DNA from: Octopus vulgaris
Lineage: Eukaryota
Length of the DNA: 64,000 bases
Assembly: GCA_951406725.2 (NCBI GenBank)
Contig: OX597841.1
Coordinates: 13,578,001-13,642,000 of the forward strand
Direction of reading: 5' to 3'
The stretch's first letter is position 1; every line of letters starts with the position of its first letter. This document shows, piece by piece, positions 1,293 through 33,300 of this stretch. Both the position numbers and the translations under genes were made by a program. The notes below the pieces were generated by a model, which was not told the DNA's origin, searched no databases, and was given only the letters and a program-made list of their open reading frames with translations.

Positions 1293-1307
1293 CAATGATT
1301 GTCAACA
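1293..1307 (+). CDS. Candidate 15-nt phase-1 talin microexon (xMIVNx)
   Basis: aaacAG|CA ATG ATT GTC AAC A|GTGAGT. Consensus donor and a long AG-free stretch upstream, but a weak pyrimidine tract. Confidence 0.35.
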
Positions 1308-2047
1308 GTGAGTGTTTGTTGTATTTCTTCATTAACCACGTTAATTACTGGTTTGTTAGCAACAATCAATGCACCAAATACCATAACAACGGCTTAAGAG
1401 GGTTTTTTTTTTTTTAGTTTTTTTCTACTGACATAATGAATTTGTTTGTTGTGTGTCGTTAAAATAATTATAATTAATTAATTAATTAATTTATGGATTC
1501 AATTTCTTTTCAGTTCTTTCAATACTTTATTCATTTCTTTTTAAAATCAGTCATTTTTTTTTCCCCTTTTTTTTTTCCCTTTTTTTTTTTCCATTTTTTT
1601 TTTCTGTGGTAAATATGTCTTGGGTCAGCTCTTTCGTTTGGTTGGGAGAAAATTTTACCAAAACTTATGTCCAAGGTGAAAGTTATTGCTCTGGGGGAGG
1701 GCATCACAATCACAGTGTGTGAGAGAGGGAGACACAAACAAACAAAAGGGCCAGACATCTGTACATGTCACAAAGGGACACCACATTTCATTGTTGTGCC
1801 CTTGTTGTCTCATGTGTCTTGTTATTAAGGGTTGTCCACATCCAGGACCAGTAGCCTCTGCATTTCTGAGCAACACCTTAGTGTAACTCATTTGAAGATG
1901 ACCGAGGGAGGACAATGTGAAGTAGTTTCTTGACCAAGGATACAAATGTGCTTCTTGATCAGAGGATTGAACTGACAAACTAATGCAAATTGAACTGGCA
2001 AACCTTGAAGGATGCCCTCAAGATGTCTCTGTTTATGGAGACAGTAG

Positions 2048-2098
<51 letters not shown>

Positions 2099-2194
2099 CG
2101 AATTTAGGTTGTGTTGTCCATAACTAGAAGGATGCTGCCTTCACTTCCTCGAATGCATTTCCTCACAGAACTGCATCCATCAGATTGTCACAAA

Positions 2195-2550
2195 AGCTGG
2201 CAGAAACATTAGCACACTGGGCGAAATTCTTAGTGGTATTTCGTCTGCCACTACGTTCTGAGTTCAAATTCCGCCGAGGACAACTTTGCCTTTCATCCTT
2301 GCAGGGTCAATAAATAAAGTACCAATTATGCACTGGGGTCGAGGTAATCGACTTAATCCATTTGTCTGTCCTTGTTTGTCCCCTCCGTGTTTAGCCCCTT
2401 GTGGGCAGTAAAGAAATAGGTATTTCATCTGTCTTTACGGTCTGTTAAAATTCCATCAAGGTCAACTTTGCTTTTCATTCTTTCAGGGTCAATAAATTAA
2501 GTACCAGTTGCATACTGGGATCGATATGATCGACTGGCTCCCTCCCCAAA
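2195..2550 (+). mobile_element. SINE family 2 (tRNA-like head, Meta-domain-like body), dimeric copy
   Basis: gctggcagaa...gagttcaaattcc (B box)...gcctttcatcct..gggtcaataaataaagtacca. Other copies lie near 11650, 13440, 14180, 15497, 20255, 31297, 37090(-), 42990(-), 43970(-), 53845(-) and 63540. Confidence 0.85.
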
Positions 2551-3345
2551 ATGTATGTGTTTATGAGCAAAACACCTAAGCTCCACGCGGTTCCGGCAGA
2601 AAGTAATGGCAAACTTCAACTGACTCTTTCGCCACAACTTTCTCTCATAAATGGTGGTACCCCAGCATGGCCACAGCTCGTGAGCTGAAACTAGATGAAA
2701 TAAAAATAATAAAAATAAATCACTGGGGGGGGGTACATGTGTTAAGACACTAGCCAATGTGATTCAGGAGGTGTTTGGTCATTTCTGGCAGTTTGTGTGA
2801 TTGTGTTGATTTCTTCGTAACGATGGTCTCTGAAAGGTAGGAGAGACAGTCTAAGACATATTTACCCCCCACTTATCCCCACCCCCTCCTTAAAAAACAA
2901 AAAAAAATGACTGAAAGACTACTTTTTGTGAAAGTATTGTAAGATTTGAAGTGGATGGACATACCAAGTTGTTGGAGACAAGAAAGATATATATATATAT
3001 ATACACACATGTATTTGTGTCTTTGTGTGTGTGTGTGTATATATGGGGTGTGGGACATTTTGGCATTGCTGTTTTGGCGCTGCCTCTTTGGTGTTGCTGA
3101 CTCAATGCTGGCATCAAGGCTGATATCAGATGTTTGAATGCTTCTTTCATCTTCTCCTCCTCCCCCGCTTATCCCTCTGTTCATGTGTGTAATTATATTT
3201 TGATTTGTGTGTCTGAAGAGAGGAAAAGTGTCTGTCAATTGTGTTCAAGTCTAACGTCTCTCTCTCTCTCTCCTTCTGTTTACGAGTGTGAACATCTAGT
3301 TATCTTTGTATGTATAATATCTCTCTCTCTCTCTCCCTTCCTCTC

Positions 3346-3433
<88 letters not shown>

Positions 3434-4991
3434 CTTATGAAGAGTGCGGAAGTGTTTGTCAATCATGTTCAGTTCATATATTGAATCTCTCTCTTTTTCT
3501 TTCTCTCTCTCTTTCTCTCTCTGTATATTTCTATTTGCATGTGTGTGAGAGTGTATTTGCCTCCAGTGCCAAAAAGTACCGGCATCAAAATAGCTCAATC
3601 TCCAGTCAGCCATGCCAAATCACCAGCAGCCAAACAGCAGTGCCCAATTGTCTCATTCCTACACTTTTACTTATATATATACACACACATACACATACTT
3701 TTATACATACATTGCTTCCTTTTATATTTATAAAAAAATTTTCTTGTTTGTCTTTGTGTGTTGCGTTTTCTCATTTCACCTTCTACCTGTCTGTTTGTAC
3801 TTACCCACCTCTCACCTCTTAATTAACTACCTGCCAAGCTATCTCCCTCTACATCTATCTGATTAATCATCCACCTGCCTATCCGGCTATCTAACTAACA
3901 ACCACTCTACCTACTTTTCCCTTTGCTCTTCCGCCTCTTTCTCTACCTGCCCAGGTAGATCTCTCTATCCACCCATTTATCCGTTTGCTCACCTGTTTGC
4001 CTACATATCTAACTACTTTTCTATTCGTCTGTTTCCCTTTCCCTCTACCTACCTACCAAACTACCCAGGTATGTATTTAGCTGTATACCTGCTCAACTAT
4101 CTTGGTACTCGCCCACCTGTCCAGGTACTCGCTCACCTGTCCAGGTACTTGCCCATCTGTCCAGATACCTGCTCATCTGCTTATCTATCTATCAATCCCT
4201 CCATCCACCCGGTCGGCCAACCATCCATCCACACTTCCACCCACTCCTCCACCCTTTTCTATGTCTCTTTCTCCTCCTCTTTGGCTGTCTGTCTGTCTGT
4301 CTCCTTCCCCGCTCTGTATTCCATCTACCCACCTGCTTATCTTTCTCTCTCTCCCTCTCTCTCCATTTTATCCTTTCATCTGTTTGTTTGTCTGTCTGTA
4401 TGTCCTCCCCTCTGATTGGCTGCTTTGAAAGGATGACAGTTCTATTAATAGCATCACAGCTTGGATGATGATGATGATGATGATGAAGTTTTATCATTTT
4501 TCTTTTCTTTTTAATCTGATGTATTTCTTAATAATAATAATAATAATATTACAATTAATTAATCTTTTGTTAAAATTTGTTAAAAATGACATCAATCTGT
4601 GAATTTTGAATATTAATATTTTAATTAATTTCTAATTTTGTTTTTGTCTGATTGAATTCGTTAATTTTTACTAACATTTGTTTATTAATTAAATTAAATT
4701 TTTCATTAATAATTGCATTTTAATCGTATTCTTTCACTTCTCTACATATATGTATAGTAAATATCGTAAATTCAATGTCATTTTGCATTTAAATTCTTCG
4801 TTTTTGCCTTGTTTTATTGATATTATGTGATTTTATTTTGTACTGTGTTTGACATGTTTTTTTTTATATGTGTTTCCCCTCCTCCTCTTCACCAGTTCAC
4901 CATCCTTGTTTGCCCTCTGCACATACGACAAGAAAATAGTTTAATCTAAAGCACAAATATATAACCATAAATGTAACAGCCTCATTTTTGT

Positions 4992-5222
4992 TTAACCCTT
5001 TCGATGCCAACCTGGCTGATACCACTTCTGGTTCTGTTGTACAAATGTCTTGTTTTCATAAGTTCTCAATTAAAATCTTCCACCAAACCTTAGTCACAAT
5101 TTATGTTCCTAACACTAGCTTAACGATAACGAAGTTATTTTACTAAATTCTTTCTTATATTTAAAATTAATTGAAAGAAACACAGAACATCTCAACAGAA
5201 ATATGGTAACAAAAGGGGTTAA
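4992..5222. mobile_element. piggyBac-type MITE (TTAA-CCCTTT...GGG-TTAA)
   Basis: TTAA flanks and short terminal inverted repeats. Near-identical copies at 5367-5596 and 12576-12805. Confidence 0.75.
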
Positions 5223-5366
5223 GAAGAAAAATAATCAGCAGAAGACATGAAACGAGGAGACCTCAATGTGGTCACTCTATATGCTAGAAATAATAGCCTA
5301 AATTTCCTTCAATCCTCACCCCTCCAACTGCTTCTAATGTGCATCTGCCCAAATGTAGAAGTGTGT

Positions 5367-5596
5367 TTAACCCTTTCGTTGCCAACCCGGCTGAAACTAC
5401 CTCTGGCCCTGTAGTACAAATGTCTTGTTTTCATAAGTTTTGAATTAAAATCTTCCACCAAACCTTAGTCACAATTTATGTTCCTAACACTAGCTTAATG
5501 ATAACCAAGTTATTTTACTAAATTCTTTGTTATATTTAAAATTAATTGAAAGAAACACAGAGCATCTCAAAATAAATACAGTAACGAAAGAGTTAA
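5367..5596. mobile_element. piggyBac-type MITE, second copy
   Basis: ttaaccctttcgtt...aacgaaagagttaa; similar to 4992-5222. Confidence 0.75.
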
Positions 5597-6439
5597 CAAA
5601 CACATTTTTATAAATCAATATCAAGGTTGATGTATCTAACCCAAAACATTGAATAATAATAATAATAATAATAATTGGTATTGTAAAGGATGGAAGCAAA
5701 TTATACGGTCATAGACTTTATGATCTGACACATAATAAGTTGGTACCAAAGTAACTGAGAAATATGAGGATCCAGCCAGAGAACTTAGAACTGTGGAGGA
5801 ACAAAAAACAACAATCTTGGCAGTTGGTTTCACACTAGTTATCAAACAGGATGTTCAGAACAGTACAGTTATGTAATACTGCATACTCGTCAGAGCTGGT
5901 AACGCAATCATGCTGTTATCTAACATCTAGTTTAATATCCAACACAAAACCAATTACCAAGATCATACAAATATACCAGTGCATGTTTTCTGCCTTGTGG
6001 ATTCATATACACCTATGTCTGTCTGTCTGTGTGTATGACGGACACCTGCACAGTTTTGGTCAACCAAATTCCTCTCATTAAGCATTGGTGAAGCTGAAAC
6101 TATAACAGAAGAGATGTCTAAGCCTTAGAGTTCAGTCCTCGGTAGCAGTATGAAATTCATTTAACCATTTGGACGCTTTGCATTAAAACACCTTTATGCG
6201 CAATATGCCTTGCAGAAGGAGTGAACCCAGAACCACACAGCTGCGAACTAAACTTCTTAACCACATGACCATGCTTGTGATTATAATCTAAACTTACTTC
6301 ATATTCGTTAAAACGTGACAAATTGAAGTACAAAGCATTTGTATGTGCGCGCGCTTAACACAGAAAATGTCTTAAGAGAAGGGTCTTTGGGATAAATATT
6401 ACACCTAATGCCTTTCCATTTATTTATATATATATATTT

Positions 6440-6530
6440 ACCAAGAAAAAAGCAACAAGAATGGATTAGTAGTTTAGTACAATTGTTTCATACTAAACTA
6501 CTAATCCATTCTTGTTGCTTTTTTCTTGGT
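6440..6530. repeat. Perfect 40-bp inverted repeat with an 11-nt loop
   Basis: accaagaaaaaagcaacaagaatggattagtagtttagta / tactaaactactaatccattcttgttgcttttttcttggt. Confidence 0.95.
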
Positions 6531-7743
6531 TATAATCACCCCACATTATTTTATGGTTAATACCACAAAGATTTCTGGTGCCTCTAAGTTAAGTACCGCA
6601 TTCATGTGAATTCACTGGAATTCACTTGAATATTAATTGTTTTTGCTGCAAGTATATATATATTTAAATATATATATAGAGACACACACACACATATTTA
6701 GGGATAACCACTAAGTGGACAACCAATATGCTAGAAGAAGATCACATACGATCTAACTACAAAGAGAAGAATGTTCTCCGGAGAGATTCAGCAAACACAA
6801 GACCATGTTCTAGCATATTGGATTTCCACTTAGTGACCATCCCGTCTCATAAGTAGATATTACAATTTTTCTGAATTTTCAGATTTTTCTATATGCTAGG
6901 CTTCTGGTTTTAAATTGATATTAATTAAATTAATATTCATTTTTCACCCTCGTTATTTAAATTTTATATATATATTTTATGCAAATATTACATCGTTATT
7001 TATTGAGGTTGGCTTTACCGTTCCTCCCTCCAAAGTTGATAAAACATAGCACCAGCCACACATTGGATTCAGTGTAATCGACTAAACCCCTCCCCTCAAA
7101 ACTGCTGCCCTTGTACCAATATTAGACTCATCGAATTCTTGCCGTTGTCATTTTGTGTTTCTTCGTAATTATTCTTTTGTTTTTGTGGGGTTTTTTTGTG
7201 TATTTTTTATATTTTTACCTTGTTTACTTTTCTGGCATAAAAAGTTGTACCCAGTTTTTATCTTTTTTATAAAAAAATTTCATTGATTTTGTTTTTAAAT
7301 TATTTTGTATCGAAAACTCCCCAGGAAGGCCCAATGTTTTCTTTACACATTAATATATTTATATATATATATATATAATATAATTTAAATATTTAATCTA
7401 CAATATAGATGATCATAAATATATATTTTATATATATGTATATATATATGATATGTAATTATGGATATATATATAGAGATATTTATATTTTTTAAAGTAA
7501 CATCTTTATATTCCTTTTGTTTAGTATGGACTTACTATTGTGTATATACATCATGTTACTATATATACATACATGTATGCAAAATGTGCTTTATACTGTA
7601 CATGTATGTATAGTGTGGTATATAATGCAATACAGACATGCATGTAGACTTACACTTATGCATTATTGTGTGGTTTACACTGCAATATATAAGTGTATAT
7701 ATTCAGTGTGTATATGCATTTATATATATATATATCTTTTTTT

Positions 7744-7779
<36 letters not shown>

Positions 7780-7951
7780 GTGTCATACATCTATATATAA
7801 TACAGCTCAGGTTGTGTATATACAATATGTACATACATATATGTATATACACTGTGAGTACATGTGTATATGTGTTGGTTATAATTGTATGTATATATGT
7901 ATGTATGTGTGTTTGTTCAAAGTGGATCATATATGTATGAATATACAGTGA

Positions 7952-8007
<56 letters not shown>

Positions 8008-8620
8008 TCACTGTATATTCATAGTGTGTGTGTGTGTGAACATCTGTCCATGTATGCTAGTGTATCTATACAGTCGTAATTGTATGTATAAACAATCATG
8101 AGTGTATAAAACAAAACTGGTTTGCCTTATATATATAGGTTTGTATATAACAGTTATTGCTGTTGAGTTTACGCACCCCAGTGCCCGTCCCCAGCGGAGA
8201 TATGCACTCGCCCTAAGGTCCCAGTTATAATACTGGGCTCACTTTTATCCTCACCTGGAAACCACCCCACCTCCACCCCCCATCCCAGACCCCTGCACAT
8301 TGCTGGACTTGTGCCAGACATATAAGGATTTTTCAAAACCGCTGCCGCCATCTTTGGTGGTGGCGGCGCCATCACGGTCATAGCTGTCATCACCACCACC
8401 ATCACCACTGTCATCATCATCATCACCACCATTATCATCATCATCACCGCCACCACCATCATCATCATCTCCCTCATAACCACTGCCACCACCACCACAC
8501 AACTATAACTGCATTGCTTAGTTTTTTGTGTTTCCGTCCATGCCCTCCCCCAACACTCTCTTTCCTCCCCGCCTTGTTGCTATCCGACTGCATTGCATTC
8601 TCCGCTGCACTCCGATACAG

Positions 8621-8635
8621 CAACACCTGAGCCAG
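8621..8635 (+). CDS. Candidate 15-nt phase-1 talin microexon (xTPEPx)
   Basis: Pyrimidine-rich, TGC-containing upstream region; gatacAG|CA ACA CCT GAG CCA G|GTGTTG. The donor is weak. Confidence 0.35.
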
Positions 8636-9995
8636 GTGTTGTTGTCCTTAATTACTACTGATTAAAATATTAATTATAAAAACTATTACTAATTGTAATG
8701 TTGATTAGTTGAATGTATTTTTAATGGCTGTTTTTACTAATTGAGCAGGGTTTCTCTTTTTTCTTTTTTTTTTTAGCAACACCCCCTCCCCCACTCCTTC
8801 CCTGATGTCTTCTCCTCTCTTCCCAAATACACACACACACTTACAAATATTCAGACACACACATTGTCAGCTACAACGATGAGTGTTTTACTTGATCTAA
8901 TCAATGAAACAGCCTGCTTGTGAAAGTGGCTGAGTACTCCACAGACGCTTGTACCCTTAATGTAGTCCCCAGGGGAGTTCTGTGTGGCACACAATGTGAA
9001 AAGGCTGGCCTTTAGGTGAGTGGACAGGAGCAACATGCAATCGAGTGTCTTGCTCAAGGACAGCATGTTACTGGGGGATTGAACTCTTGACCTTATGGTC
9101 TTGAGCCAAATGCCCTGACCACTAAGCCATGCACCTTATATATAACTGGCGCTCCATTGGTTACTCAGCCGAGTGGACACGCGCAGTGAAATCTTTCATT
9201 TAAGAGCGCAACATATTGCTTGGTCCAGGGATTGAAACTACAGCCTTGGATCAGGAATGCAACGCCTTAAACCACTAAATCACGTGCCTCCACAAATGCA
9301 CGCACACACACACACACACACGAGGGTTTTGGCAAATGAAATGAGGAGACAAATCTTTCAATTAACTGTGACCTTAAAAAAACTCCCTTTAGGGGACATT
9401 TGTTTAACCCTTTCGTATTCGGGTTACTTCGTCCCGTTTATTGCTTATTTCTCGAAACTTTGAAATTTTCATGATGTGATAGCTTATTCTTAGGATGACC
9501 TTGCAGAGTAGGTATGAGATGCCTGATCTGGCCAGTTTTGAACATAAAACAAGTAGAATATATTGGCCGGTTTATATGCTAAAAGGTTAAACAAAACAAA
9601 GAAGAAATGGAGACAACTCTGATAAGATCAAATGATTGAAATTTTTGAAAAATGGTGCTGGTGTTTTCTTCTCAGTGCAAGAGTTTAACTAGAAAAAGAC
9701 CCGTCTTCCTACGCACACACTCTCACCGTGCATCCCCCTCATACATCACATGCAAATATAGTGTGGTTCTAATGTAAGATTCTTAATTAAAACAAGTTCT
9801 GTCTCCTCATCACAGTGTAACCACAGTGAAGAAAATTTAACTGAAAACTAAATCGGCCCTACCTGCACTTCCTGTCCCCTTTCCTTGCCCCTCCTCAATG
9901 TTTGACAATATATTTTGCTGCTGCTGCCTGTCTTCTTTCACCAAAACATTCATGTCTCGCTCATTAAACATTTCATTCCGTTTTCTTCCATTTAG

Positions 9996-10007
9996 GTGTT
10001 GTAGAAG
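9996..10007 (+). CDS. Candidate 12-nt phase-1 talin microexon (xVVEx)
   Basis: ccgttttcttccatttAG|GT GTT GTA GAA G|GTATGT. Strong acceptor with a long AG-free pyrimidine region and a strong donor. Confidence 0.6.
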
Positions 10008-10131
10008 GTATGTTGTATAACTTCGCACCCTTAACTCGGCACCACCTCAGTCTATCATCGTCGTCGTTGTTGTCGTGTCGTTCGTCTGTCCTCCCACCAC
10101 CCACCGCCCTTCACATACTGACTTTATAATT

Positions 10132-10923
10132 CAGGGGTTCTCAACCAAGACCCATGTGACCATTGTGGGTCCATATAAAATTTTGTTGCTAAAATTTAAA
10201 TCTGATGAATTTGGCTGCATTTCTATAATACACAAAATATGTTAATTTCTTTAATGAATTCCTGATAATATTTAATTAATCATTATCGTTTAACGTCCGC
10301 TTTCCATGCTAGCATGGGTTGGACGATTTTGACTGAGGGCTGGCAAACCAGACGGCCGCACCAGGCTCCAATCTGATCTGGCAGAGTTTCTACAGCTGGA
10401 TGCCCTTCCTAACGCCAACCACTCCAAGAGTGTAGAGGGTGCTTTTTACGTGCCACCGGCACAAGGGCCAGTCAGGCGGTACTGGCAATGACCTCACTCA
10501 TATCTTTTTACACATGACACCGGCACAGGTGTCACTAAGGCAATGTTGGTAACAATCACGCTCGAATGGTGCCCTTTTACGTGCCACCAGCACGGAGCCA
10601 GTTGGCTGCTCTGGTACCGATCACACTCGGATGGTGCTCTTGGCACCCTACTAGCATGGGCACAAGTGCCAGTAAGGCGACGCTGATAACAATCACACTC
10701 GAATGGTGCCCTTTTAATTATAAAATATAATTACGAAAATTAATTATTGGAACCTGGTGCAGCTTACCAGTTTTTAGTCAAACCGTCCAATCCATGCCAG
10801 CATGGAAAACAGACACTAAATGATCCTGATGGTGAATAGGATTTTTTTTTTTTAATATCAAATGGCTAAGAGGACCCATCTGAATAAAGGGTTTCATACT
10901 CAAAATACGGTTGAGGACCACTG
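10132..10923. mobile_element. hAT-like MITE carrying a nested RTE 3' UTR insertion (about 10281-10715, - strand)
   Basis: Termini CAGGGGTTCTCAACC / GGTTGAGGACCACTG. Related degenerate copies near 15812, 20480-21143 and 42292-42840. Confidence 0.55.
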
Positions 10924-12575
10924 ATTTGATTGACCTGTTCCCTTACTGACCAATGTGTGTGTGTGTGTCTGTGTTACTGTGAGTTTTGCTAACAGTGTGT
11001 GGACATTTTTTTTTCTTACCTGCCTACCTATGGACCCACCTGTCTAACCATGTGTGAACACCTGTCCACTACTTACCTATCACTCACCTGCCTTTCCCAG
11101 TAGTTCACAGCACACTTGTAGTCAGTGTTATATATTTTTGCATGCTTTCACGTATAGATATATACATGTATATACACACACGTGTATATATGTATATATA
11201 TATATATACACACATATGTATGTATATATATATATACATCATTTATGTATTGTAGTATATTTATATATAATTGTATTATACATACATATGTATGTAGTAT
11301 TTTATATACATATTGTCATATAATTGTATTTTATTATATTTATATATTGTATATTTAAATACTATTGAGAGGATAGTTGCTGTATTTCCTTCCAGATCAT
11401 CTACCTCTGATGAGTGCAGGGTTACATAATCGGATTGTTACCCAACACTCCTTTTGAAGCCCCTGTGTGAAACTAATTGGTTAGATCGGCTATAATGGAT
11501 ATATATAATACTGAACACTTTGCCTAATATATTTTGATATATATATCTGCCATGGTCAAGTTTACCTTTGATTCTTGCAGGATTGTTAAATAAGTACCAG
11601 CTAATTGCTGGGGTCAGTGATACCAACTAAATTTGGTGTTATCATCACTAAGGCGAAAAGATGGCAGAATTGTTGCTGCGCCGGATGAAGGGCTCAACAG
11701 CATTTCATCCGTCTTTCGGTTCCCAGTTCAGATTCCACCGAGCTCAACTTTGCCTTTGACCCTTTTTGGTTCAGTAAAATAAGTACCAGTTGGATACTTG
11801 GGGTCAATGTAATTGACTAACCCCATTTCCCAAAATTGCTCATCTTGTGCCAAAACATTAAACCATTATTATTACTACTACTATTATTATCATTATTATT
11901 ATTATTATTATTATTTTACTATTGAAGTGATTTGGCAGAATATGAAAGCATTGGAAAAATGCCTTGTGACATGTATTTGACACTTTATGATTTGAGTTCA
12001 AATCCTCTCAGGATACCGGTCAAGAAGTAGGGTCAGTGGTTTCTGCTAAACCTTTCCCTTAAAAATGCTGGCCCTTGTCCCTAAATTAGAAATTATCAAT
12101 TAATTGATTTAGTTTCTTATTTCATGATATTATTTCTATATATAAAGTTGTTGGGGTTTATATATATAAATATATATATATATACACAAATTAACAAATG
12201 CTTTGATTTCAGTTTAGTGTATTTCTGCAGGCATGGCTGTGTGGTTAAGAAGTTCGCTTTGCTTTATAACTATGTGGTCTCGGGTTCAAACCCACTGCGC
12301 AGCACCTTAGGCAAGTGTCTTCTTCTCTAGCTTCAGATCATCAGAAAATCTTGAGGAAGTTTTGGTCGGCAGAAACTAGATGAGGATCAGCATTTCTGTT
12401 CTCAGGATTTAAGTTTAATTTCTTGTCTCCTTTAAGAAGAAAAATAATCAGCAGAAGACCTGAGAGGAGGAGACCTCAATGTGGTCACTCTATATGCTAG
12501 AAATAATAGCCTAAATTTCCTTCAATCCACACCCAACTGCTTCTAATGTGCATCTGCCCAAATGTAGAGGTGTGT

Positions 12576-12805
12576 TTAACCCTTTCGATGCCAACCTGGC
12601 TGATACCACTTCTGGCCCTGTTGTACAAATGTCTTGTTTTCATAAGTTCTGAATTCAAATCTTCCACCAAACCTTAGTCACAATTTATGTTCCTACCACT
12701 AGCTTAACGATAACGAAGTTATTTTACTAAATTCTTTGTTATATTTAAGATTAATTGAAAGAAACACAGAGCATCTCAACAGAAATATGGTAACAAAAGG
12801 GTTAA
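12576..12805. mobile_element. piggyBac-type MITE, third copy
   Basis: ttaaccctttcgatg...aacaaaagggttaa. Confidence 0.75.
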
Positions 12806-13400
12806 TATTCCTGGGTTGCATTTAGCGGACTTCAGTCTGTTATAAACCTTTAGGCCAGGTTCACTGTCTAAGGATAACCTCCACAAGTCACAGGGAGCTT
12901 GAACTGTGCCATAGCTGTGGCCCTTACTTCTGAACAGGATAATAGTCTGTCGCAGAGTGGACTGCAGCAAAGTGAAATGAAGGGTTTTGCTCAAGAACAC
13001 TGTGCTGCCTAGTCCGTAATTTGAACCCCTGATCTTACAGTCATGAGTGCAACACCCAAATCAGTAAGCCACATGCCTTCTAAATATGATCAGCTGTGAT
13101 ACCTTCTTGAACTTTGGCCCCTTGAAGAGGGAGACAGTGTCCTCAACAAATTCTAAACTCTTGCTTAATGATGGGTGTGGCTGAATGGGCCCTTAATCTC
13201 AACATGGACCTTTAAACCAGAGAACAAGGCTAGGAGAAGACACTTGCCTTTGATAGAATTGATGATCTGGAATCTGTGGGGTTTCTTCATTGACCCTTTG
13301 GGTTTAGACATGCGCTAACAGAACACTTCATTGTCCTTTCTGTATTGCTACAATTTTTCATGACTCCCCCCCCTCTAATTTTCACCTGCAAAGTCTCATC

Positions 13401-13437
<37 letters not shown>

Positions 13438-13663
13438 GAAAACAGCGAGGTGGCAGAATGGTTACCATGTTGGGCAAAGTGCTTAGCAGCATTTTGTCCA
13501 TCCTTGTGTTCTCGGTTCAAATTCCACTGAGGTCGACTTTGCCTTTCATCTTTTCGGGGTCGATAAATTAAATACCAGCTGAGCATTGGGGGGGGGGGTC
13601 AATGTAATTGACTAACACCTTTCTCCAGACTTGCTGGCCTTGTGCCAAAATTTGAAACCATCA

Positions 13664-13697
<34 letters not shown>

Positions 13698-13698
<1 letters not shown>

Positions 13699-13925
13699 TA
13701 ACCCTTTAGTGTTCAGATTACTCTGTTAAATGTAATATTTTTTTACTCAGATTGCTTTTAATTAATCCTGCATTATCTCATAGCTTTGAAGTTTCAATGA
13801 CGTGATTGTTCATCTTTAGAATGTCAATGTAGGTTAGGTGTGAGAGCCCTGATCTGGTCAGTTTAAACATAAAATAGGTAGAAAACTTCAGCCGGATATG
13901 GCCAGTTTAAACACTAAAGGGTTAA
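13698..13925. mobile_element. piggyBac-type MITE, second family
   Basis: ttaaccctttagtgtt...aacactaaagggttaa. Related copies at about 200-370 and 9404-9590. Confidence 0.75.
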
Positions 13926-14168
13926 GACGTCGCACAGTATACAACATTGTGAGGTTGTTGATTGAAGATATTGTGTCTCCAGGGGTTTGCACTGTTTGTC
14001 AAGACACAACAAGGACCTCAGACAGTTCCAAGTAATGCCAGCTTTTGCAATACATCTAGATTGAAGGGTATTTCTAAGGTTTTCAGATGGTTTTTCAGAT
14101 TGGGAGGTATTGAACCCAGTGCTCCGATGACCATAGGGATAACCTTTATGTTTGACTCTCGTAGCTGC
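13926..14168 (-). mobile_element. 3' fragment of an RLE-type non-LTR retrotransposon
   Basis: IKVIPMVIGALGSIPPNLKNHLKTLEIPFNLDVLQKLALLGTV resembles the VIPxVIGALG...LQKxAxLGT C-terminus of restriction-like endonuclease elements. Confidence 0.7.
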
Positions 14169-14413
14169 CACTTATTTTGGCAGCAAGCTGGTTGAAGCGT
14201 TAGCACATTGGACGAAATGCTTAGCGGCATTTCGTCTGTCTGTACATCGTGAGTTCAAATTCCACCCAGGTCAACTTTGCCCTTCATCCTCCTGGGGCAA
14301 TGGGTCAATGAAGTAATTTACTAGTTGAGCACAGGAGGTTGTTGTCCTCAACTAATTCCTCCACCAAAATATCAGGCCTTCTGCATATATCAGAAATAAT
14401 CATTATCGTTGTC

Positions 14414-14700
14414 ATTCTTTGCCATCAAATTTGAATTTTTCAATTGGTGCTCAAACCTTGAAAAAAACAAGAGAGTTAAACTGCATCAGCCATAAGGGAA
14501 TACATGTCTGTCTTATCTAACTCGTCCAGTAGAGGCCGCCAATTGATATCTGAAAAGTTCGATGAAATAACTCATGAACACTGCCATATTTACGTCTTTG
14601 ACCGGTCTGAACAAGGGGAGATAATAGAAAAAGAATCATTCGTTTATTTTTTTCAAGGCTTGAACACCAATGGAAAAATTCAAATTTGATGGCAAAGAAT
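14414..14700. repeat. Inverted repeat (about 55-bp arms)
   Basis: attctttgccatcaaatttgaatttttcaattggtgctcaaaccttgaaaaaaa / tttttttcaaggcttgaacaccaatggaaaaattcaaatttgatggcaaagaat. Confidence 0.85.
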
Positions 14701-14869
14701 CCAAATTAGATCGAAAACATCTAAATTATCATTATCATCCTTTTCATCATCATCATTATTATTATTATCATTATCATCATCATTATTAATATCCTGGCCC
14801 GAATTCCCAAAGAACTATTTTTTTCTCTTGTATTCCTCCGCCTCATGTCCAATGTGTTCTTTTCCACAG

Positions 14870-14911
14870 AAAAATATAAAACCGACCCTAGTGCATTACC
14901 ATCACCAGATG
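14870..14911 (+). CDS. Candidate 42-nt phase-1 talin cassette exon (xKYKTDPSALPSPDx)
   Basis: gttcttttccacAG|AA AAA TAT...CCA GAT G|GTAAAT. Frame-preserving, no stop, and in unique sequence between repeats. Confidence 0.65.
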
Positions 14912-15125
14912 GTAAATTAGGTTTGTCACCTTTCATATTTCTAACAACAAAAACCCTTTTTTTGTTTAATCATCGTTGTCTTCATTATCGTTATTATTAT
15001 TGTTATTATTACTGTTGTTATTTTTCGTATTTGCTGTTGTTACCATGTCGTTCTTGTTGTAGATAGAATTATTATTATTATTGTTATTATTATAATTATT
15101 ATTATTATTTATTATTATTATTATT

Positions 15126-15484
15126 GTTAGTTAGTTAGTTAATTTTTTGGCTCAAAAAGCAAAAAAAGCAAGGCCATGTAGGGGGACATGGAGTTATGTA
15201 CAGGGTGGTGTTCATGTAAAGAGTTCAGGCCATTTGTGGTCAAGGGAGACTTTGAACCGAGCGGTCGTCGGCATCTTCACCATCTCGTCCGGCAGCTTAT
15301 TCCAGGGATCCACAACCCTGACAGAGAAAGCCCCTCTCCTTCGATTGAGATGAAATCGTCGCAGATAGAGCTTTTTGGAATGACCCTGCAGCCGACGCTC
15401 TGGAGCAGGAGTGAAGAACAGCTCTTTCGAGAGGTTACACTTTCCGCTTATGATGTTGTGAGCAAGAATGAGACCACCACGGCG
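15126..15484 (-). mobile_element. 5'-truncated CR1-clade LINE (ORF2 C-terminus plus tail)
   Basis: The minus strand reads ...RLQGHSKKLYLRRFHLNRRRGAFSVRVVDPWNKLPDEMVKMPTTARFKVSLDHKW, a typical CR1 ending, with a (TAAC)n tail. Confidence 0.85.
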
Positions 15485-16669
15485 TTATTATTACTAAGGC
15501 AGTGAGCTGGCAGAATCGTTAGCACGCTGGGTGAAATGCTTAGCGATATTTCATCTGTCTTCTTGTTCTGAGTTCAAATTCTACTGAGGTCGATAAATTA
15601 AGTACCAGTTACGTACTGGAGTCAATCTAATCAACTGGCCCCTCCCCACCACAAATTCAGGCCTTGTGCCTTTAGTAGAAAGGATTATTATTAAATCTTT
15701 AGTAGAACTGAAATGATGGACAAGTTTAGAATACTTCAGTGGTAGGGCTTTGTATCGTGAGTTCAAACCTCACCAGGGTCAAAATTTTTTTCATCTTTTT
15801 GGGGTCTATACCAGAGGGTCTCAACCCTTTTTTACCTACGGGCCTCTTTGATTCTAATTTTAATCTACTGGACCCTATTTTTATTTTTTTAAAATCCCTT
15901 CATATTTTTATAACTAGGGATTATGAGGAATTGTGAAAAGATATTTTGTGTATTGGACCTAAAGTTTAACAACTAAATTTTAAGGGTCATGTGAACTCCT
16001 GTTGAGGACGGGGGGGGGGGCATTTTTTTTCAAACCACAATTTGTTTATCCAAAATTGACCTCTCAGGGAGTGGCAGAGGTGGTGGCCGTGGTGGAAGTA
16101 GGTAGTAAGATGAAGTACAATTGAAATGGAAGGGAAACCCTGAGATAGAATGTCTTGTGGTATTTGTTTTGAGTCTCTGCACCCTGAGTTCAAACTCCAC
16201 TGAGGTCAGCCTTTCCTTTTAATTCTTAGTGAAGGACAATTGGTGGGGGGGGTGACAATGTCCAAGGGCACTCTGTCGGTTACAATGACAAGGGTGGCAG
16301 CTGATTCAGTCAACAAAACAGCCTACTTGTGAAATTAATGTGCAAGTGGCCGAGTACTCCACAGTCATGCATACCCTTAATGCAGTTCTCGGGGAGATTC
16401 AGCAAGACAAGGTTGCTGAATCTGACATGGTTGGCCCGTTTTTAATTACTGGTACAGATCGTTTTTGCCAGCTGAGTGGACTGAAGTGATGTGGAATGGA
16501 GTGTCTTGCCCAAGAACACAATGTATCACCCAGTCTAAGAATAGAAACTGCGTTTGCCTATAAACAATGTGCCCAGTTGTTGTTTTACCGATTCCCTGGG
16601 CTGGTTGTAAGGGTGTGGTCACGATCTCTTGTTAGTTCAGAAGAATGGACAATGCCATTATTACTCTTC

Positions 16670-17068
16670 CTCTTTTACTTGTTTTAGTCATTTAACTGTG
16701 GCCATACTGGAGCACCACTGTTTAGTCGAGCAAATCAACTCCAGGACTTATTCTTTGTAAGCCTAGTACTTATTCTATCGGTCTCTTTTGCCGAACCGCT
16801 AAGTTATGGGGGCGTAAACAAACCAGCATCGGTTATCAAGCGATGTTGGGGGAGGACAAACACAGACAAACAAACATACACACACACATATATATACATA
16901 TATATATACGATGGGCTTCTTTCAGTTTTCTGTCTACCAAAACCACTCACAATGCTTTAGTCGGCCCGAGGCTATAGTAGAAGACACTTGCCCAAGGTGC
17001 CATGCAGTGGGACTGAACCCTGAACCATGTGGTTGGTAAGCAAGCTACTTACCACACAGCCGCTCCTA
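16670..17068 (-). mobile_element. SINE family 1 (tRNA head, CORE-like ccttgggcaagtg, internal TA/CA repeat, GAAACAAGTAAAAGAG tail)
   Basis: Full-length reverse copy. Other copies lie near 20585(+), 24940(-), 27950(+), 32268(+), 36245(+), 39310(+), 41190(-), 45539(+), 46693(+), 52497(-), 53232(-), 55018(+) and 56345(-). Confidence 0.9.
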
Positions 17069-18054
17069 ACCTTCATCTTGCATGGTACCACATCACCAAA
17101 GAACTGAAGAGAGACGGGTGACCGCTAAACATTTCACACCCTGACAACAAAAATTTTAACAACAAAATTGTAGATTTATGAACCCCTACTCTCTGCTCTC
17201 ATACATATTCCAGCCATTCTGGAGATTTTTTTTTTTCTTTAAATTAAAAAAAATTATTGATATCCTTACGACATTCTTTTCTGTTTTTGTTCTTGTGGCA
17301 TTCCTTTAGCATTTCTTGTGCCATTTTTTTTCTTCTTTTGTGGCATTCCTTATCTGTGTAACAGTCATCACAATTGTATATAGCCATGACTATTCCTGCA
17401 ACCATTGTGATATCTTTTAGCAGTCTTGTGAATCCCAGAAGTATTCTTGTGTTCCTTAGCATTCATTTAGCCTTCGTTACAATTAAATGTCATATTCCCT
17501 CCTCCGTGTCATGTTCCTCACCATTATTATTATTATTATTATCGCTGTCATCATTGCACTTACCTGGCATTCCTTAAAATTCTTTTGACATTCATTTAGC
17601 CTTCCTGTGGCATAACTATTATTTTGATGTTCATTACAATTCTGTTGCCATTCTTTACCGTTTCTCTTGTGTCTGTGGCATGCTTCGCAATTCGTGTAGT
17701 ATTCTTGTGATCTTCTTTGCGGCACTCGTTAGAATTACTGTAACAACACTTGGAATTCTCGTGGCAATCTTAAATGCTTGAGTCAAATTCCTCATCATTT
17801 TTGTAAGAATTCCTTAGCATTTCTGCAATACTCACTGCAGACATTTTTCTTCAGAACATTCTTCAGCTGCTAGAATTTTCTACCAAATCTCTCTCAGATC
17901 ACACACTTTTCCCTTAAAAGAGATCAGCACAATTTATTGGATGCAGCAGAAAATCCTCCCACATTTTACACAGCCATTCTCATGGCGCTAATTAAGTAAG
18001 ACAGGTGGAAATGGTGTCTTCCTGTCGCTAATATTCTACCATTTTGTTTTTCAG

Positions 18055-18117
18055 TTACCATTGTAGTTCGGACTGACATATGCTATGAGTTTGCTGTTGA
18101 AACATTTATCAAGAATG
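18055..18117 (+). CDS. Candidate 63-nt phase-1 talin cassette exon (xTIVVRTDICYEFAVETFIKNx)
   Basis: Branch-like GCTAAT near 18027; attttgtttttcAG|TT ACC ATT...AAG AAT G|GTGAAT. Frame-preserving, no stop. Confidence 0.55.
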
Positions 18118-18799
18118 GTGAATCCGAGGTTCTTTTTTTGCTGCACCCTGCATAATGTTATTTTAGATATTCTATGTGTGTCCTTGTTGTTTAGCCCCAG
18201 GTCAGTCCAGATCCAGCAAACCTATGATCAAAGGGGCTCCAGCTATAACCATCCCATTTATTATTCAGACATAGTGTATCTAGGAGTACATTATCTCGTA
18301 TGTCCTTCCTCGTCATTGTTGTGATTTAGCCCCCAGATCAGCTTTCTTCCAGCAGACCTATGATCAAAGATATTCCACCCATGACCATCCCATATTTTAT
18401 TCAGGACTACATTATCCAGTGCAGCCTCTTCCTAGTTATGACAGTAGATTTTAATTCCAGGAAGAACTAGCTACTACTTCTAGCAAATCTAGAAACCACA
18501 TAGACATCATTATTATCTCATAGAGGTGACCTGTGTTTAACCCCAGGTCAACCCTATGCAACCAGCCTTATGATCAATAACATCCTACTTGTGACCATTC
18601 CTATACATTTCCATATCTAATGCAATATTATGTCTTTTATGAGACAATCTGTGTGATTTGAGGGTGATTTTGGCTGTTATTTCTAGCATTGGGGCAACCT
18701 CATTGGCTGTCCTAGTTCGCTTATAGTTCACTCATTTAAAGTTCAGTGAATTATGTTACAGCAAACATTTAATATTCATAAGTTGTGTCTTATATTTCA

Positions 18800-20050
18800 T
18801 GGCCTTGCATACATTTCACAATCATCCACTGTATATTACTTTCAATGGTTCTGTGTAGTTTTTAGCACTCAGCCACTATATATTACATTCTTTAGTTCAA
18901 CATACATTTCATAGTTACTGTATCTCTGCATACATTTCACAGCACCTCAATGTGTATAAGTTTTGTTTCAACATACAGTGATACATTGTATAATGCACAT
19001 CATGAGCTTGCGTAAATTTCACATATGTATATTATTCTTCAGATTCTATATTTCACAATGATCTACAGTGTTTCTGCATACATTTCACAATGTTCTACAG
19101 TGTTTCTGCATACATTTCACAGTGACCTACTGTATATTACATGGTTTTTCTGCATATATTTTATTGTGCATATTTTACATAGCACTGTTTATTTCAATCA
19201 GTATACTTTTCACGGTAACTTTGTACATATTACAAGGTGTATTTTCATCCATATTTCAGTTATTGACTGTAGATTACACATTTTACAGTGATATTTTTCT
19301 GCATATATTTTATGGGGTTTCATTCAACAAAGCTTTGTATCTATGTTTATCTTTGTATATTTCAGTGTGATCCAACTGTTACCCACCTATATATTCTTGC
19401 TTAAATTTCATAATCTTCATCATATGTTTATGTACATTTCATATAACCTTCCTACAAGATCCTGCTTGCAGTTTACCAAGCCTTCATCACATTACATGCT
19501 TCTGCATACATTTCACCTAAGTGTGCAAACACTTCTATTACGTCTATTAACATAACACATGCTCAAGTCTATGTTTTAAAATAGTGATTAAATTTCTGCA
19601 CACATTTCATTGTGATGCAGCCATGTTTTTGCTACACAAATATTTGTTTCCATTATTACATTCCCCATTGAATTAATTAACTATACTTACATATTCCTGC
19701 ATACATTTCACAGTTACTCAACTACACACCTGATGCATGTTTAGTCCTTAAATTTCACAGGATGTTAACAGGTTGCACCTTTCTTTAATAAGTCTTACAC
19801 TTGTGCAAATATGTAATGTTCCTGCATAGATTTCACAGTGACTCAGTTATTTTCCTGTTTGTTTCTGCATAGATTTCACAGTGGACCCCAATACATTACA
19901 CACAAACATTAATACAGATGACGTAATTTTTTTAAAAATTTAATTTGTTGCAGTTAACTTACTGTGTTACATACTTGTGCATATATTTCATGATGATTGT
20001 ACGTAGATTAGATTCTTGTATATATTTCACATTTGCATATATTTCATGTA
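18800..20050. repeat. Degenerate tandem repeat (core tctgcatacatttcacagtg)
   Basis: The motif recurs many times with irregular spacing. Confidence 0.6.
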
Positions 20051-20748
20051 TTTCCAAGTACAAGAGATAATTCTTTAATAATTGTTTCTTTTTACATTTT
20101 AAAACTTATAATTGAATTTCGTTCCATTTAATTATATTTTGTTTCTTTCCATTGTTCACCTTCTCATACTTTTTTCCTTTAATATACAAAGCATTCCTGC
20201 CCTGTTGTTCATCGTCCACCCATTTCACTTGCAATAATCTTCAAGACCAGAGGCAGCATGCCGGGCAAAATGCTGAGCAGTATTTCGTCTGTCTTTATGA
20301 TCTGAGTTCAAATTCCACCAAGGTCGACTTGCCTTTCATCCTTTTGGGGTTGATAAATTAAGTACCAGTTACGTACTAGGGTCAATGTAAACAACTTAAT
20401 CCCTTCCCCCATAATTTGAAAACCACTGGGCAGTTTCCATCCCTAGAATTTATTATTTTGAACCAGTAGTAATAGAACCTGATAGTGCTGTGACTCTTAA
20501 CCAGGGTCCATCTGGCCCTCAGGGGCCCATCTGGCCCGCAGGGGTCCATATAAGATTTTGTTGTTAAAATTTATCTGCAATAAAGCACAGGAGTGGCTAT
20601 GTGGTAAAAAGCTTGCTTCCCAACCATATGGTTCTGGGTTCAGTCCCACTGCGTGGCACCTTGGGCAAGTGTCTTCTACTATAGCTTCAAGCCAACCAAA
20701 GCCTTGTGAATGGATTTGGTGGATGGAAACTGAAAGAAACCCGTCGTA

Positions 20749-20779
<31 letters not shown>

Positions 20780-22478
20780 TTTTGTGTCTGTCTCCCAGCC
20801 ATCGCTTGATAACTGATGCTGGTGTGTTTACATTCCCCGCAACTTAGCGATTTGGCAAAAGAGATGAATAGAATAAGTCCTAAGGTCGATTTATTCGACT
20901 AGAGGCAGTGCTCCAGCATGGCCGCAGTCAAACGACTGAAACAATTAAAAGAATAAATAGGTTGTACTTCTACAGTCCTCAAAATATTTTTTAAAAATTT
21001 TCTTAATACAATTCCTGACACAATTTAATTATAAGGATACATTAGGATTTTTTGAAACATTAAATTGGTATAAGGGTCCAGTGGAATAAAACCAGAATGA
21101 AAGGGGTCCATAGGTAAAAAAAAAAAAGGGATGAAGAAGCACTGATCCTGACAATACAGTGACACATTGGATTTAATTTAATTTAATTTGAATTTGTATC
21201 TTTTCAATTAATTGTGAATTTTAGAAATAACTTTTTTTTTTCCTTATCTAGAAACGTAACTATTTGCCCTGAATTTATTACAATTGTGTTAATTGTTAAT
21301 ATCCAGAGTAAAATTAGGGGATTAGCAATGCAGGTCCTGTGGCTCACAGCAGTCTGCTTTTGTGTTTGTGGCTATACAACTTAAAAGTTCTAACTGGGCC
21401 CCATTTACAAGCTCATGCACTGTTTATCTTGATGTGAGACTATCATGCACACATGGTTGTGATGTACCCCTGGTGTACTCTTATCAGGCAGTCACAATAG
21501 ATATATTGATATATTGGGCCAAGTGACCTCAGTGTCACTTGGCATGTACTGCTCTTTCACTCAGTAATAATAATAATAATTTGTGGCACTCCATCAGTTA
21601 CAACAATAAGGGTTCCAGTTGATCCAATCAATGGAACAGCCTGCTTGTGAAACTAACGTGCAAGTGGCTGAGTATTCCAAGGACACGTACTGTTAGCATA
21701 GTTCTTGGGGAGATTCAGCGTGACAAGGCCTGCCCTTTGAAATACAGGTACAACAGAAACAGGAAGAAAGAGAGAAAGTGGTGGTGAAAGAGTACAGCAG
21801 GGTTCGCCACCATCCCCTGCTGGAGCCCCGTGGAGCTTTAGGTGTTTTTTCTCAATAAACACAATGCCTGGTCTGGGAATTGAAACCACAATCCTACAAT
21901 TGCGAGTCTGCAGTCCTAACCACTGGGCCATTTGCGCCTCCACAATAATAATAGTTAATGAATAATAATCACTTTATTTAAGTATATTTAACCATTTTCT
22001 TTTATTTTTAAATTCATTGAAATAAATGCAAAAGAAAGCATTATTTTTTAAAAGTAATAATAATTCTCATAATTAAATTTTTAAGACATTTTAGGGGAAA
22101 CCTCGCATAGTGTCTGCAATGCTGGGAAATACAGTAATAATAAAAATAATAATATATTCAACTAATTACTAATTAATGACAATAAACTCTTCACTTTTTA
22201 TAGTATTGCTTTTTTTTTTTTTGCATGAATGATGCTAAACTATTTTATATTTTTCTTTGATGTTGTTGTTGTTAAAATCTATTTTTAAATTCATCAAATA
22301 GCTGCGAAAGACAGTATATAATTATCATGATTAATAATAATAATAATTAAGTCATTTTAATCATTTTTTTTTTTTATGGTTTTTGCAGCCATTGTTTTTG
22401 TGATTTTTTTTTTTTGTAAATAATTTTCGTTTCTTTTTTTTTTTTTTTTTCTTTTTAATTCATTACCGAAATTAACAG

Positions 22479-22603
22479 GGCCTAATTGGGTTGATTACGG
22501 TGACCCGACAGTTATTGCAGAAAATGAACTCCGTGGTGCAGCAAGCTCAATTGAAGCTGCTGCCAAAAAACTTGCCCAGCTGCAGCCCCGTCAAGCTGCG
22601 AAA
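22479..22603 (+). CDS. TLN: Talin exon (R12/R13 junction, start of I/LWEQ actin-binding region); phase 1 start
   Basis: ttaacAG|GG CCT AAT TGG...GCG AAA|GTAAGT. Translates (G)PNWVDYGDPTVIAENELRGAASSIEAAAKKLAQLQPRQAAK, matching vertebrate talin GTEWVDPEDPTVIAENELLGAAAAIEAAAKKL. Confidence 0.97.
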
Positions 22604-24496: not shown

Positions 24497-24622
24497 ACAG
24501 CTGACGAGAGCCTGGGTTTCGAAGAACAGATTCTGGAAGCAGCGAAATCGATTGCAACTGCAACAGCTGCCCTCGTAAAGTCAGCGTCAGCTGCACAGAA
24601 GGAACTAATACTCCAAGGAAAG
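24497..24622 (+). CDS. TLN: Talin exon (R13 / I/LWEQ domain)
   Basis: ttccAG|ACA GCT GAC...GGA AAG|GTAACA; 126 nt; TADESLGFEEQILEAAKSIATATAALVKSASAAQKELILQGK. Confidence 0.97.
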
Positions 24623-25292
24623 GTAACAGAAACCTACAGACATTCATTGACCAAATTAAAATAATTAGAAATAATCAAAGTAAATCATCTGAGATTAAGT
24701 CCAATCTAAGCCATATTCATAGCTAGGAATATAATATATGCTACATGCACACATTTGTTAACTTCTCTAATCCTCTGAGATTATGTCCAATCTGCAGGCA
24801 TATTCATAGCTAGGAAGGTTATAAGCTACTAAGGGTCTCACCTGAAGAATGCAGAGCCCTGCTGTAACAAAAACTGCTGCTCAAGGACCAGCTTTTGTCT
24901 TCTGTTTTAGGAAATATTCCATCCTACATAGTATTTATTTTTTTAAAGCTTGGTACTCTCATTTTATTGGTCTTTTTTGTCAAACTGCTAAGTTACATGG
25001 GCCTAAAGCAACCGACATCAGCTTTTAAGTAGTGAGGTGGGGCAACAAAGCACACACATATATATATGCATGTATATATGAGAGGCTTCTTTCAGTTTCC
25101 ATCTACCAAATCCACTTGCAAGACTTTGGTCAGCCCAAGGCTACAGTAGAAGACATTTGCCTAAGGTGCCATGCAGTGGGACTGAACCTGGGGTGATGTG
25201 GTTGGAAACAAACTTCTTACCACTCAGCCATACCTGCATCTAAATATATAAACACTACACTAAATATTGTCAGTATACTCTGGAGTTTGTAT

Positions 25293-25348
<56 letters not shown>

Positions 25349-25517
25349 ACACCCTAAATAATGTATGTATATACACTAAACCATTTTTTAATATTGATGC
25401 TCTCTGATTTGAGGAGGATTCCTTTTGGTTATTTCTAGCATGTTGTATGACCACAGAGTTATAATGAAACCTATTTGCTTATAAACTGATGTTGTGTCTT
25501 TCATTCTTCTTCCCCAG

Positions 25518-25586
25518 GTGTCCGCTTCATACTCAAAGTCTACCCTGGACGAAGATGGCCAGTGGTCTCAGGGCTTAATTTCTGCA
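25518..25586 (+). CDS. TLN: Talin exon (R13 / I/LWEQ domain)
   Basis: tccccAG|GTG...TCT GCA|GTAAGT; 69 nt; VSASYSKSTLDEDGQWSQGLISA contains the conserved DGQWSQGLISA motif. Confidence 0.97.
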
Positions 25587-25856
25587 GTAAGTACTCACTT
25601 TTTTTACCCTCATGTACTCTCATTTAATTCACCTGTACTGTTTGAACGCTCGTATGCTCCTTCAGAAAAATAGAAATTAAGATTAAACACCCTGCGATAG
25701 GTGAAAACCTGCAAAGTAGAAACATTACTGTATATAATTTTTTTTTATTTTTATAATTTGTTTATATTTTATTATGAATGCAAAACAACACCACAAAGGA
25801 ATTGATGTAAGTTTAAATTATAAACTGCAATATAGGGATTACTGTGTATGTATATA

Positions 25857-26254
25857 CTAGCAGTATTGCCCGGCGTTGCTCGGGTTTGTTTCGACCCTTT
25901 AGAATTGGAATTTTTGAAAAGTAAAAATTTTGCATTATGTAGCTTGTTATTCTCTTTAAGTGAACATTTTTCTGGTTGAAATACACCGGAAAAATGGCGA
26001 CACAGCAGTCAAAAAATCGTAAAAAATAGGGATTTTCATAGGAAAAAAAGCAGCTTTTTGATGTAAATAATTTTTGGTGTTAACATGGTCCAATTTGAAT
26101 TTTTTCTTCTACGGAAGGAAGAGCAAGCCTTCTTCTATCATACTCTCAATTTTGGTCAACTTGCGCCGCAGGGTCTCGGAGGAGATAGTGTTAATTGAAG
26201 GCTATACCAAACCTGACATACACACACAGACAACTTCAGCTTTATATATAAAGA
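25857..26254 (-). mobile_element. Non-autonomous Helitron in a talin intron
   Basis: The minus strand starts TCTTTATATATAAAG and ends with the hairpin CCCGAGCAACGCCGGG followed by CTAG. It is inserted between A and T with no TSD. Confidence 0.85.
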
Positions 26255-26553
26255 TATATATATATATGGTATGAAAATAAATTTTAAAAAAAGGCATAAG
26301 AATGACGTTAAAGAACAAACAGGGTTTATTAGGCTCATGGTCAGGAAAATTCAAAGAAGTTCTTAACATTTTGAGCGTTTGCTCTTAATGACAGATGAGG
26401 AGAGAGAGGAATAAGAACAGAGTACACACACATCGTAAAAAATTCATTGGTTATCAACCGTAAATTGCTGTATACATGTGTATTATATATATATTTTATT
26501 CTGGACATTAAATGGACAATGGTGATGATGTTTCACTCCCTTCTCCTTTTCAG

Positions 26554-26736
26554 GCTCGCCGTGTGGCAGCTGCAACACAAAGCCTGTGTGAGGCTGCTAA
26601 TGCAATGGTGCAGGGTCAGGCAAGTGAAGAAAAATTAATTGCATCAGCGAAGGAAGTTGCTGGTTCGACCGCTGCCCTCTTGGTGGCGTGCAAAGTGAAA
26701 GCTGACGTCGGTTCAATCTCAATGCACAGATTGCAG
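26554..26736 (+). CDS. TLN: Talin exon (R13 / I/LWEQ domain)
   Basis: ttttcAG|GCT...TTG CAG|GTTCGT; 183 nt; ARRVAAATQSLCEAANAMVQGQASEEKLIASAKEVAGSTAALLVACKVKADVGSISMHRLQ. Confidence 0.97.
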
Positions 26737-33200: not shown

Positions 33201-33300
33201 NNNNNNNNNNNNNNNNNNNNNNNNNNNNNNNNNNNNNNNNNNNNNNNNNNNNNNNNNNNNNNNNNNNNNNNNNNNNNNNNNNNNNNNNNNNNNNNNNNNN
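33201..33300. other. Assembly gap (100 N)
   Basis: Run of N. Confidence 1.

Follow-up and report, generated by a model that had tools for sequence, protein, structure and literature searches.

Talin, which links cell-adhesion receptors to actin, is described as almost invariant in length and domain order (PMC6032930), and the closest described variants come from alternative splicing. In human TLN1, exon 17b, a 51-nucleotide (nt) in-frame cassette, was reported to alter talin mechanics (Gallego-Paez et al. 2023, PMC9997659). Ciona produces talin-a and talin-b through alternative C-terminal I/LWEQ modules (Singiser and McCann 2006, PMC1702346). Here, we analyzed a stretch of 64,000 nt from the 2.8-Gb genome of Octopus vulgaris (G000:C28:13578001-13642000, hereafter the window), which carries the 3′ end of the talin gene, and describe short cassette exons in the intron between the rod domains R12 and R13. 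Coordinates are given relative to the window, negative values being upstream.

As with TLN1 exon 17b, one of the octopus cassettes is an in-frame exon of 51 nt. Exon 17b, however, is a single cassette between exons 17 and 18, reported with R1-R3 constructs (PMC9997659) and located at the opposite rod end from the R12/R13 hinge, whereas octopus has at least two stackable cassettes at the hinge itself, in the patch that contacts the head in mammalian talin-1. Like Ciona, octopus is a single-talin invertebrate in which splicing diversifies the C-terminal actin-binding end, yet it does so by linker insertions before R13 and not by exchanging I/LWEQ modules (PMC1702346). TLN2 variants offer a further parallel, as tissue-specific splicing of a talin gene with long introns (PMC6032930). 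Cassette splicing of talin is known, but a hotspot at the regulatory R12/R13 surface is apparently undescribed. Our literature search, which did not extend to subscription papers or preprint supplements, returned no paper on R12/R13 cassettes or mollusc talin isoforms. Talin is likewise not mentioned in the main text of a 2026 preprint on bilaterian tissue-specific splicing, whose supplements could list these exons.

Two cassette exons at the R12/R13 junction of octopus talin

The O. vulgaris talin P0361 matches the genome letter for letter in 53 blocks over about 140 kb, from window -112 kb to 28490. The blocks cover residue ~120 to the end and are collinear, so that FERM head, rod bundles and the C-terminal I/LWEQ (R13-DD) module belong to one gene. 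Pfam accessions for talin head, rod and I/LWEQ are recorded for P0253, the cluster representative of P0361. The exon chain and matches to PDB structures place the following features around the hinge:

-6098 to -5993 (G000:C28:13571902-13572007), plus strand: last R12 exon, from the exon chain
1 to 22478, plus strand: in-window part of the phase-1 hinge intron, which separates the last R12 exon from the first exon of R13
22479 to 22603, plus strand: first R13 exon, constitutive, from phmmer matches to PDB 6r9t/2jsw and the exon chain
-117 to -94 (G000:C28:13577883-13577906; L003:9883-9906), plus strand: cassette exon A, 24 nt, encoding the eight residues AYYIQDNE
14870 to 14920, plus strand: cassette exon E4, 51 nt, encoding 17 proline- and charge-rich residues

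The last R12 exon ends at -5993, in phase 1, with ...AEAIK plus one base. The hinge intron is therefore a phase-1 intron of 28,471 nt, reaching 6 kb beyond what was visible to an initial annotation made from the window sequence alone. The exon at 22479, which that annotation correctly placed in phase 1, encodes the W-V-D motif of the linker together with the first helix of the C-terminal actin-binding site, and aligns with talin-1 from residue 2294 onward.

The initial annotation had proposed an array of five small exons in this intron, starting at 1293, 8621, 9996, 14870 and 18055 (here E1 to E5). All five are indeed flanked by AG and GT, are multiples of three and are stop-free in phase 1. 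The array as such was not supported: only the segment at 14870 occurs in isoform models, with another donor, while 1293, 8621 and 9996 are found in none of 12 isoforms and 18055 lies in a dispersed repeat. Nor does any of the 12 contain the peptide obtained by joining the five segments. These isoforms are the hinge-spanning ones among 13 octopod talin proteins retrieved, the remaining one ending before the hinge.

What does occur at the junction is combinatorial. Four of the isoform models carry no insert, one carries A only, one E4 only and six carry both, which gives inserts of 0, 8, 17 or 25 residues. The general idea of the initial annotation, short frame-preserving cassettes combined at the R12/R13 junction to vary the length of a spacer, is thus borne out by four combinations in octopod models. 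Exon A was missing from its list, lying just upstream of the window; it is present in seven of the hinge-spanning isoforms, from both Octopus species, and absent from five. E4 is likewise present in seven of the 12, always in the 51-nt form and never ending at 14911, the 42-nt form first proposed. The donor at 14911 scores above the annotated one (6.0 vs 1.7) and may be an alternative donor. The Octopus bimaculoides models P0252 and P0366 carry both exons, and between the two species A and E4 together differ at one of 25 residues (P to T in E4 of O. bimaculoides).

Both exons map onto AG..GT, frame-preserving intron segments in the flanking phase, and are included in some and skipped in other isoform models (gene models, not reads). 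When scored with splice-site matrices derived from 51 of the gene's introns, E4 ranks fifth and A seventh among 88 candidates with an acceptor score of at least 3. Both are already present in automatic annotations. Because the exons are so small, and appear in four combinations and two species, we infer that these models rest on real spliced RNA.

The junction is an insertion hotspot in molluscs

The initial annotation had suggested looking for insertions at this position in mollusc talin isoforms. Models of gastropods and bivalves indeed carry them, at precisely the K|G junction used in octopus. Insert lengths in amino acids are 0/8/12/13/20 in Haliotis, 0/9/12/15/27 in Physella, 0/2/12/15 in Biomphalaria, 0/2/12/34 in Pomacea, 0/22 in Babylonia and 0/12/22 in pectinids (scallops). 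Each set includes the skip form, and the longer inserts are composed of shorter ones, the cassettes, of 2-22 residues, being stacked. A 12-residue cassette with an IRWS-type core is common to gastropods, scallops and Mytilus.

For a census, we took all retrieved proteins that span the hinge by pattern, taking the clusters of P0040 and P0051 as molluscan by similarity; proteins ending before the hinge or missed by the pattern (e.g., three from Owenia and one from Solemya) were excluded. An insert was present in 65 of 118 mollusc sequences vs one of 233 others. The single non-mollusc case, P0025, is a fragment that reads like intron read-through. Such read-through fragments indicate that the intron position itself is shared by non-molluscs. 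Two Branchiostoma clusters (P0297 and P0268) contain talin models of 3200-4050 residues, compared with the usual ~2550, and have no R12/R13 insert where they span the hinge.

Position of the inserts and their possible effect on autoinhibition

In talin-1 numbering, the octopus insert site is K2291|G2292, which falls between E2288 and E2294/D2297/E2299/D2300. In talin-1, R12 forms a lid over the face of the F2 head domain that binds phosphatidylinositol 4,5-bisphosphate (PIP2), and charge reversal of these five acidic residues was reported to leave talin compact while increasing binding of the vinculin head (Dedden et al. 2019, PMC6856716). On the other side of the insert, R13 helix 1 starts a few residues downstream; this helix is released upon actin binding (PMC11831117). 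The spacer role suggested by the initial annotation captures the variable length, but the site also lies inside the acidic patch that contacts F2 in mammalian talin-1.

We modeled the snail isoform P0020 with AlphaFold2 (55-row alignment, mean predicted local distance difference test (pLDDT) 79.8, predicted template modeling score (pTM) 0.47). Insert and linker, residues 298-314, have a pLDDT below 50, and the helices at 266-301 and 316-339 are formed. The insert is thus predicted to be a loose loop that connects helix 5 of R12 to helix 1 of R13 and leaves the two bundles folded.

Since the insert lands inside the patch that forms the lid in mammalian talin-1, we lean towards the view that the 8, 17 or 25 residues added by the two cassettes weaken the autoinhibitory lid between head and R12. 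The insert would split the acidic patch and give R13 helix 1 a longer tether. Inclusion, which would be regulated by tissue, would then shift talin towards an open state accessible to PIP2, vinculin and actin.

Several observations weigh against this interpretation. The effect on the lid may be small, as octopus retains only three of the five acidic lid positions (E2288, D2297 and D2300) and mammalian talin remained compact when its lid was mutated. The structure model describes a snail isoform, without the head and with the pTM given above. The octopus cassettes have no recognizable sequence likeness to those of snails and scallops, and no IRWS- or DCQPR-like snail cassette was found in the octopus hinge intron. 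Only the skip form appears in Argonauta (1/1) and in the spanning members of a cephalopod-like cluster (5/5). Support for A and E4 comes from gene models, and those named O. vulgaris probably describe this same assembly. Sampling was uneven as well: isoform clusters were read mainly for molluscs, with whole clusters also for Lingula, Owenia, Branchiostoma, Ptychodera, Centruroides and Nymphon, and cluster representatives only for vertebrates.

A natural series of insertions of 2-34 residues amid the lid patch, in three mollusc classes, provides ready variants for testing how activation and the engagement of actin depend on the R12 lid and on the R12-R13 tether. The hotspot may also show a route to tissue-specific adhesion in animals with few talin genes.

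Other candidate segments in the hinge intron

The hinge intron contains 886 segments of 6-63 nt that are bounded by AG and GT, multiples of three and stop-free in phase 1. The bare pattern is therefore worthless as evidence, in line with the warning about chance matches in the initial annotation. The density of strong candidates is at background, with seven phase-1 candidates scoring at least 12 vs 6.6 per equal length of the gene's other introns, a background that contains some true alternative exons. The reverse strand of the hinge intron has one. Besides E4, the proposed segments are:

1293 to 1307, plus strand: candidate E1, 15 nt, AG..GT in phase 1, unsupported
8621 to 8635, plus strand: candidate E2, 15 nt, weak sites (3.9/2.2), rank 34 of 88
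9996 to 10007, plus strand: candidate E3, 12 nt, top splice score of the 88 (10.0/9.8)
17945 to 18150, plus strand: dispersed repeat of ~200 bp enclosing candidate E5 (18055-18117, 63 nt)

None of these four candidates occurs in the 12 hinge-spanning octopod isoforms, which is a weak test for exons of 12-15 nt. We also searched the octopus hinge against representatives at 50% identity. The best 150 of 391 matches included neither a protein with the peptides of E1, E2, E3 or E5 before the hinge nor a cephalopod isoform fragment. This search added 144 new sequences, 19 of which span the junction by pattern (16 without insert, three read-through-like or noise).

The segments had been described as lying in unique sequence. 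This applies to 1293, 8621, 9996 and 14870, each with one match in the genome (single copy in this search, which does not prove rarity), but not to 18055. The repeat around E5 is dispersed and multicopy, with 40 scored matches among 135 candidates at 69-79% identity. E5 has a high splice score (rank 6 of 88). Pyrimidine-AG acceptor-like and donor-like words are, however, also present in all three other repeat copies aligned, so its splice-like signals arrived with the repeat element. It is very unlikely that E5 is a real exon. The same low expectation holds for E1, whose acceptor (-5.1; donor 7.9) lies below the threshold and which has no UGC in the 60 nt upstream. Both are probably chance or repeat-derived.

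The frame of the E5 repeat presumably resembles the start of a transposase, a likeness unmatched by Pfam or DNA. An origin as a remnant of DUF4817 (PF16087) was rejected, as the 32-residue frame had no Pfam match and the repeat no DNA match to the ten best PF16087 loci. PF16087 itself has at least 150 scored matches of 1048 candidates in this genome. In the best of these copies, a pyrimidine-AG immediately precedes the start codon, a feature shared by the repeat around 18055.

SRRM3/4 (eMIC) microexons are defined by a length of 3-27 nt, a range that includes A (24 nt), E1 and E2 (15 nt each) and E3 (12 nt) but neither E4 (51 nt) nor E5 (63 nt). E3 is the best remaining microexon candidate. 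Over the same length, however, the gene's other introns would be expected to yield about one candidate of its strength, and we put the odds that E3 is a real exon slightly below even. For E2, the argument is a different one. Neural microexons dependent on SRRM3/4 (eMIC) have a displaced pyrimidine tract and UGC before the AG (10.1101/2024.09.17.613571). E2 has this layout, its tract ending 45 nt upstream and being followed by four UGC; unlike SRRM3/4 targets, exon A, E3 and E4 have no UGC between tract and AG. A filter for displaced tract and UGC, chosen after E2 was seen, retained two phase-1 segments in 28.5 kb vs two in 104 kb of other introns. That E2 is a true microexon, possibly of neural type, is conceivable, if doubtful. 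One or two true microexons, 9996 and 8621, may extend the cassette set.

Three more high-scoring candidates lie in repetitive surroundings: 18195 (6 nt) and 2305 (39 nt) in sequence repeated nearby, and 3567, whose pyrimidine tract belongs to a microsatellite.

Alternative explanations for the cassettes

The cassettes could be real but nearly neutral: where a phase-1 intron is long and falls in a flexible loop between bundles, any short in-frame exon may be tolerated, and such exons would come and go by drift. Consistent with this, octopus and snail or scallop inserts are unrelated in sequence, the loop is predicted to be disordered, exon-like segments are common in the introns of this gene, and one candidate is repeat-derived. 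Drift fits poorly with the near identity of A and E4 in two Octopus species (1/25 residues), with an IRWS cassette persisting across gastropods and bivalves, and with the non-molluscs, where the intron position is the same but 232 of 233 sequences carry no annotated insert. We judge near-neutrality unlikely. Alternatively, the inserts could act mainly as binding or phosphorylation motifs, which dock a partner beside the actin-binding site. Short conserved motifs within disordered loops are typical of linear motifs, and such motifs are present here in a loop predicted to be disordered: octopus has an S-P site and three tyrosines set among acidic residues, whereas snails and scallops have the conserved motif with a tryptophan. 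They vary from lineage to lineage, however, and a feature search of the ESM atlas gave only clusters of talin/vinculin type or without annotation; a mainly docking function seems distinctly improbable.

The two remaining explanations concern what is spliced at all. If the full five-segment array were used, annotation would have missed a large combinatorial code. Annotation pipelines often miss exons shorter than ~15 nt, and the splice score of E3 and the SRRM3/4-like layout of E2 speak for this reading. Yet E5, at 63 nt, would be easily annotated and is absent from all 12 isoforms, the acceptor of E1 is very weak, candidate density is at background, and the best 150 matches of the representative search gave no protein with the peptides in question. 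The full array is accordingly a highly improbable scenario. At the other extreme, the annotated inserts could be gene-prediction artefacts, with only the skip form being made; P0365, the only protein from assembled reads in the octopus cluster, is indeed the skip form. We give this hardly any credence, as models of different origin, for two species, agree on the same two exons and combine them in four ways, and at least six further mollusc isoform sets also have cassettes at this junction. Weakening of the head-R12 lid remains the interpretation we prefer.

Other variable sites in the talin gene

A second cassette hotspot lies upstream at about -62150 (G000:C28 ~13515850), at talin residue ~1499. 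A ten-residue exon with a YYASW-type core is common to octopus, gastropod and scallop models at this site. Gastropods stack cassettes of 4, 6, 7, 10 and 11 residues at this position, where inserts are likewise present in Branchiostoma and Owenia. Another cassette exon of 24 nt, at -69590 to -69567 (residue ~1409), occurs in four of the 13 octopod isoforms.

An alternative last exon is located at about -21648, in the 21.7-kb intron from -30996 to -9345. Used after ...DSAK, it yields a talin of 2157 residues without R12-R13-DD (P0363), and similar truncated models of 2130-2205 residues also occur in gastropods and bivalves. The first ten codons of this exon form an internal cassette in O. bimaculoides models.

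Taken together, molluscs might tune talin autoinhibition by splicing, with the lid stack of independently included cassettes, the stack at residue ~1499 and the alternative last exon removing R12-R13-DD, along with octopus neural microexons at 9996 and 8621 missed by annotation, setting the degree of opening tissue by tissue. In this full form, we consider the scheme unlikely.

Remaining features of the window

Downstream of the hinge, the gene continues with the following exons:

24497 to 28490, plus strand: last five exons of the gene, which cover R13 and the dimerisation helix, with starts at 24497, 25518, 26554, 27358 and 28359

From 28.5 to 64 kb of the window, no further protein-coding gene is evident, and the long open frames are mostly tandem repeats. 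This part includes a gap of 100 N at 33201-33300, a tandem array of 61-62-bp units at 33483-34181, a 16-bp satellite of ~130 copies at 48353-50473 and a TA-rich array of 1.5 kb at 60256-61869. The long open frames inside the three arrays are repeat artefacts.

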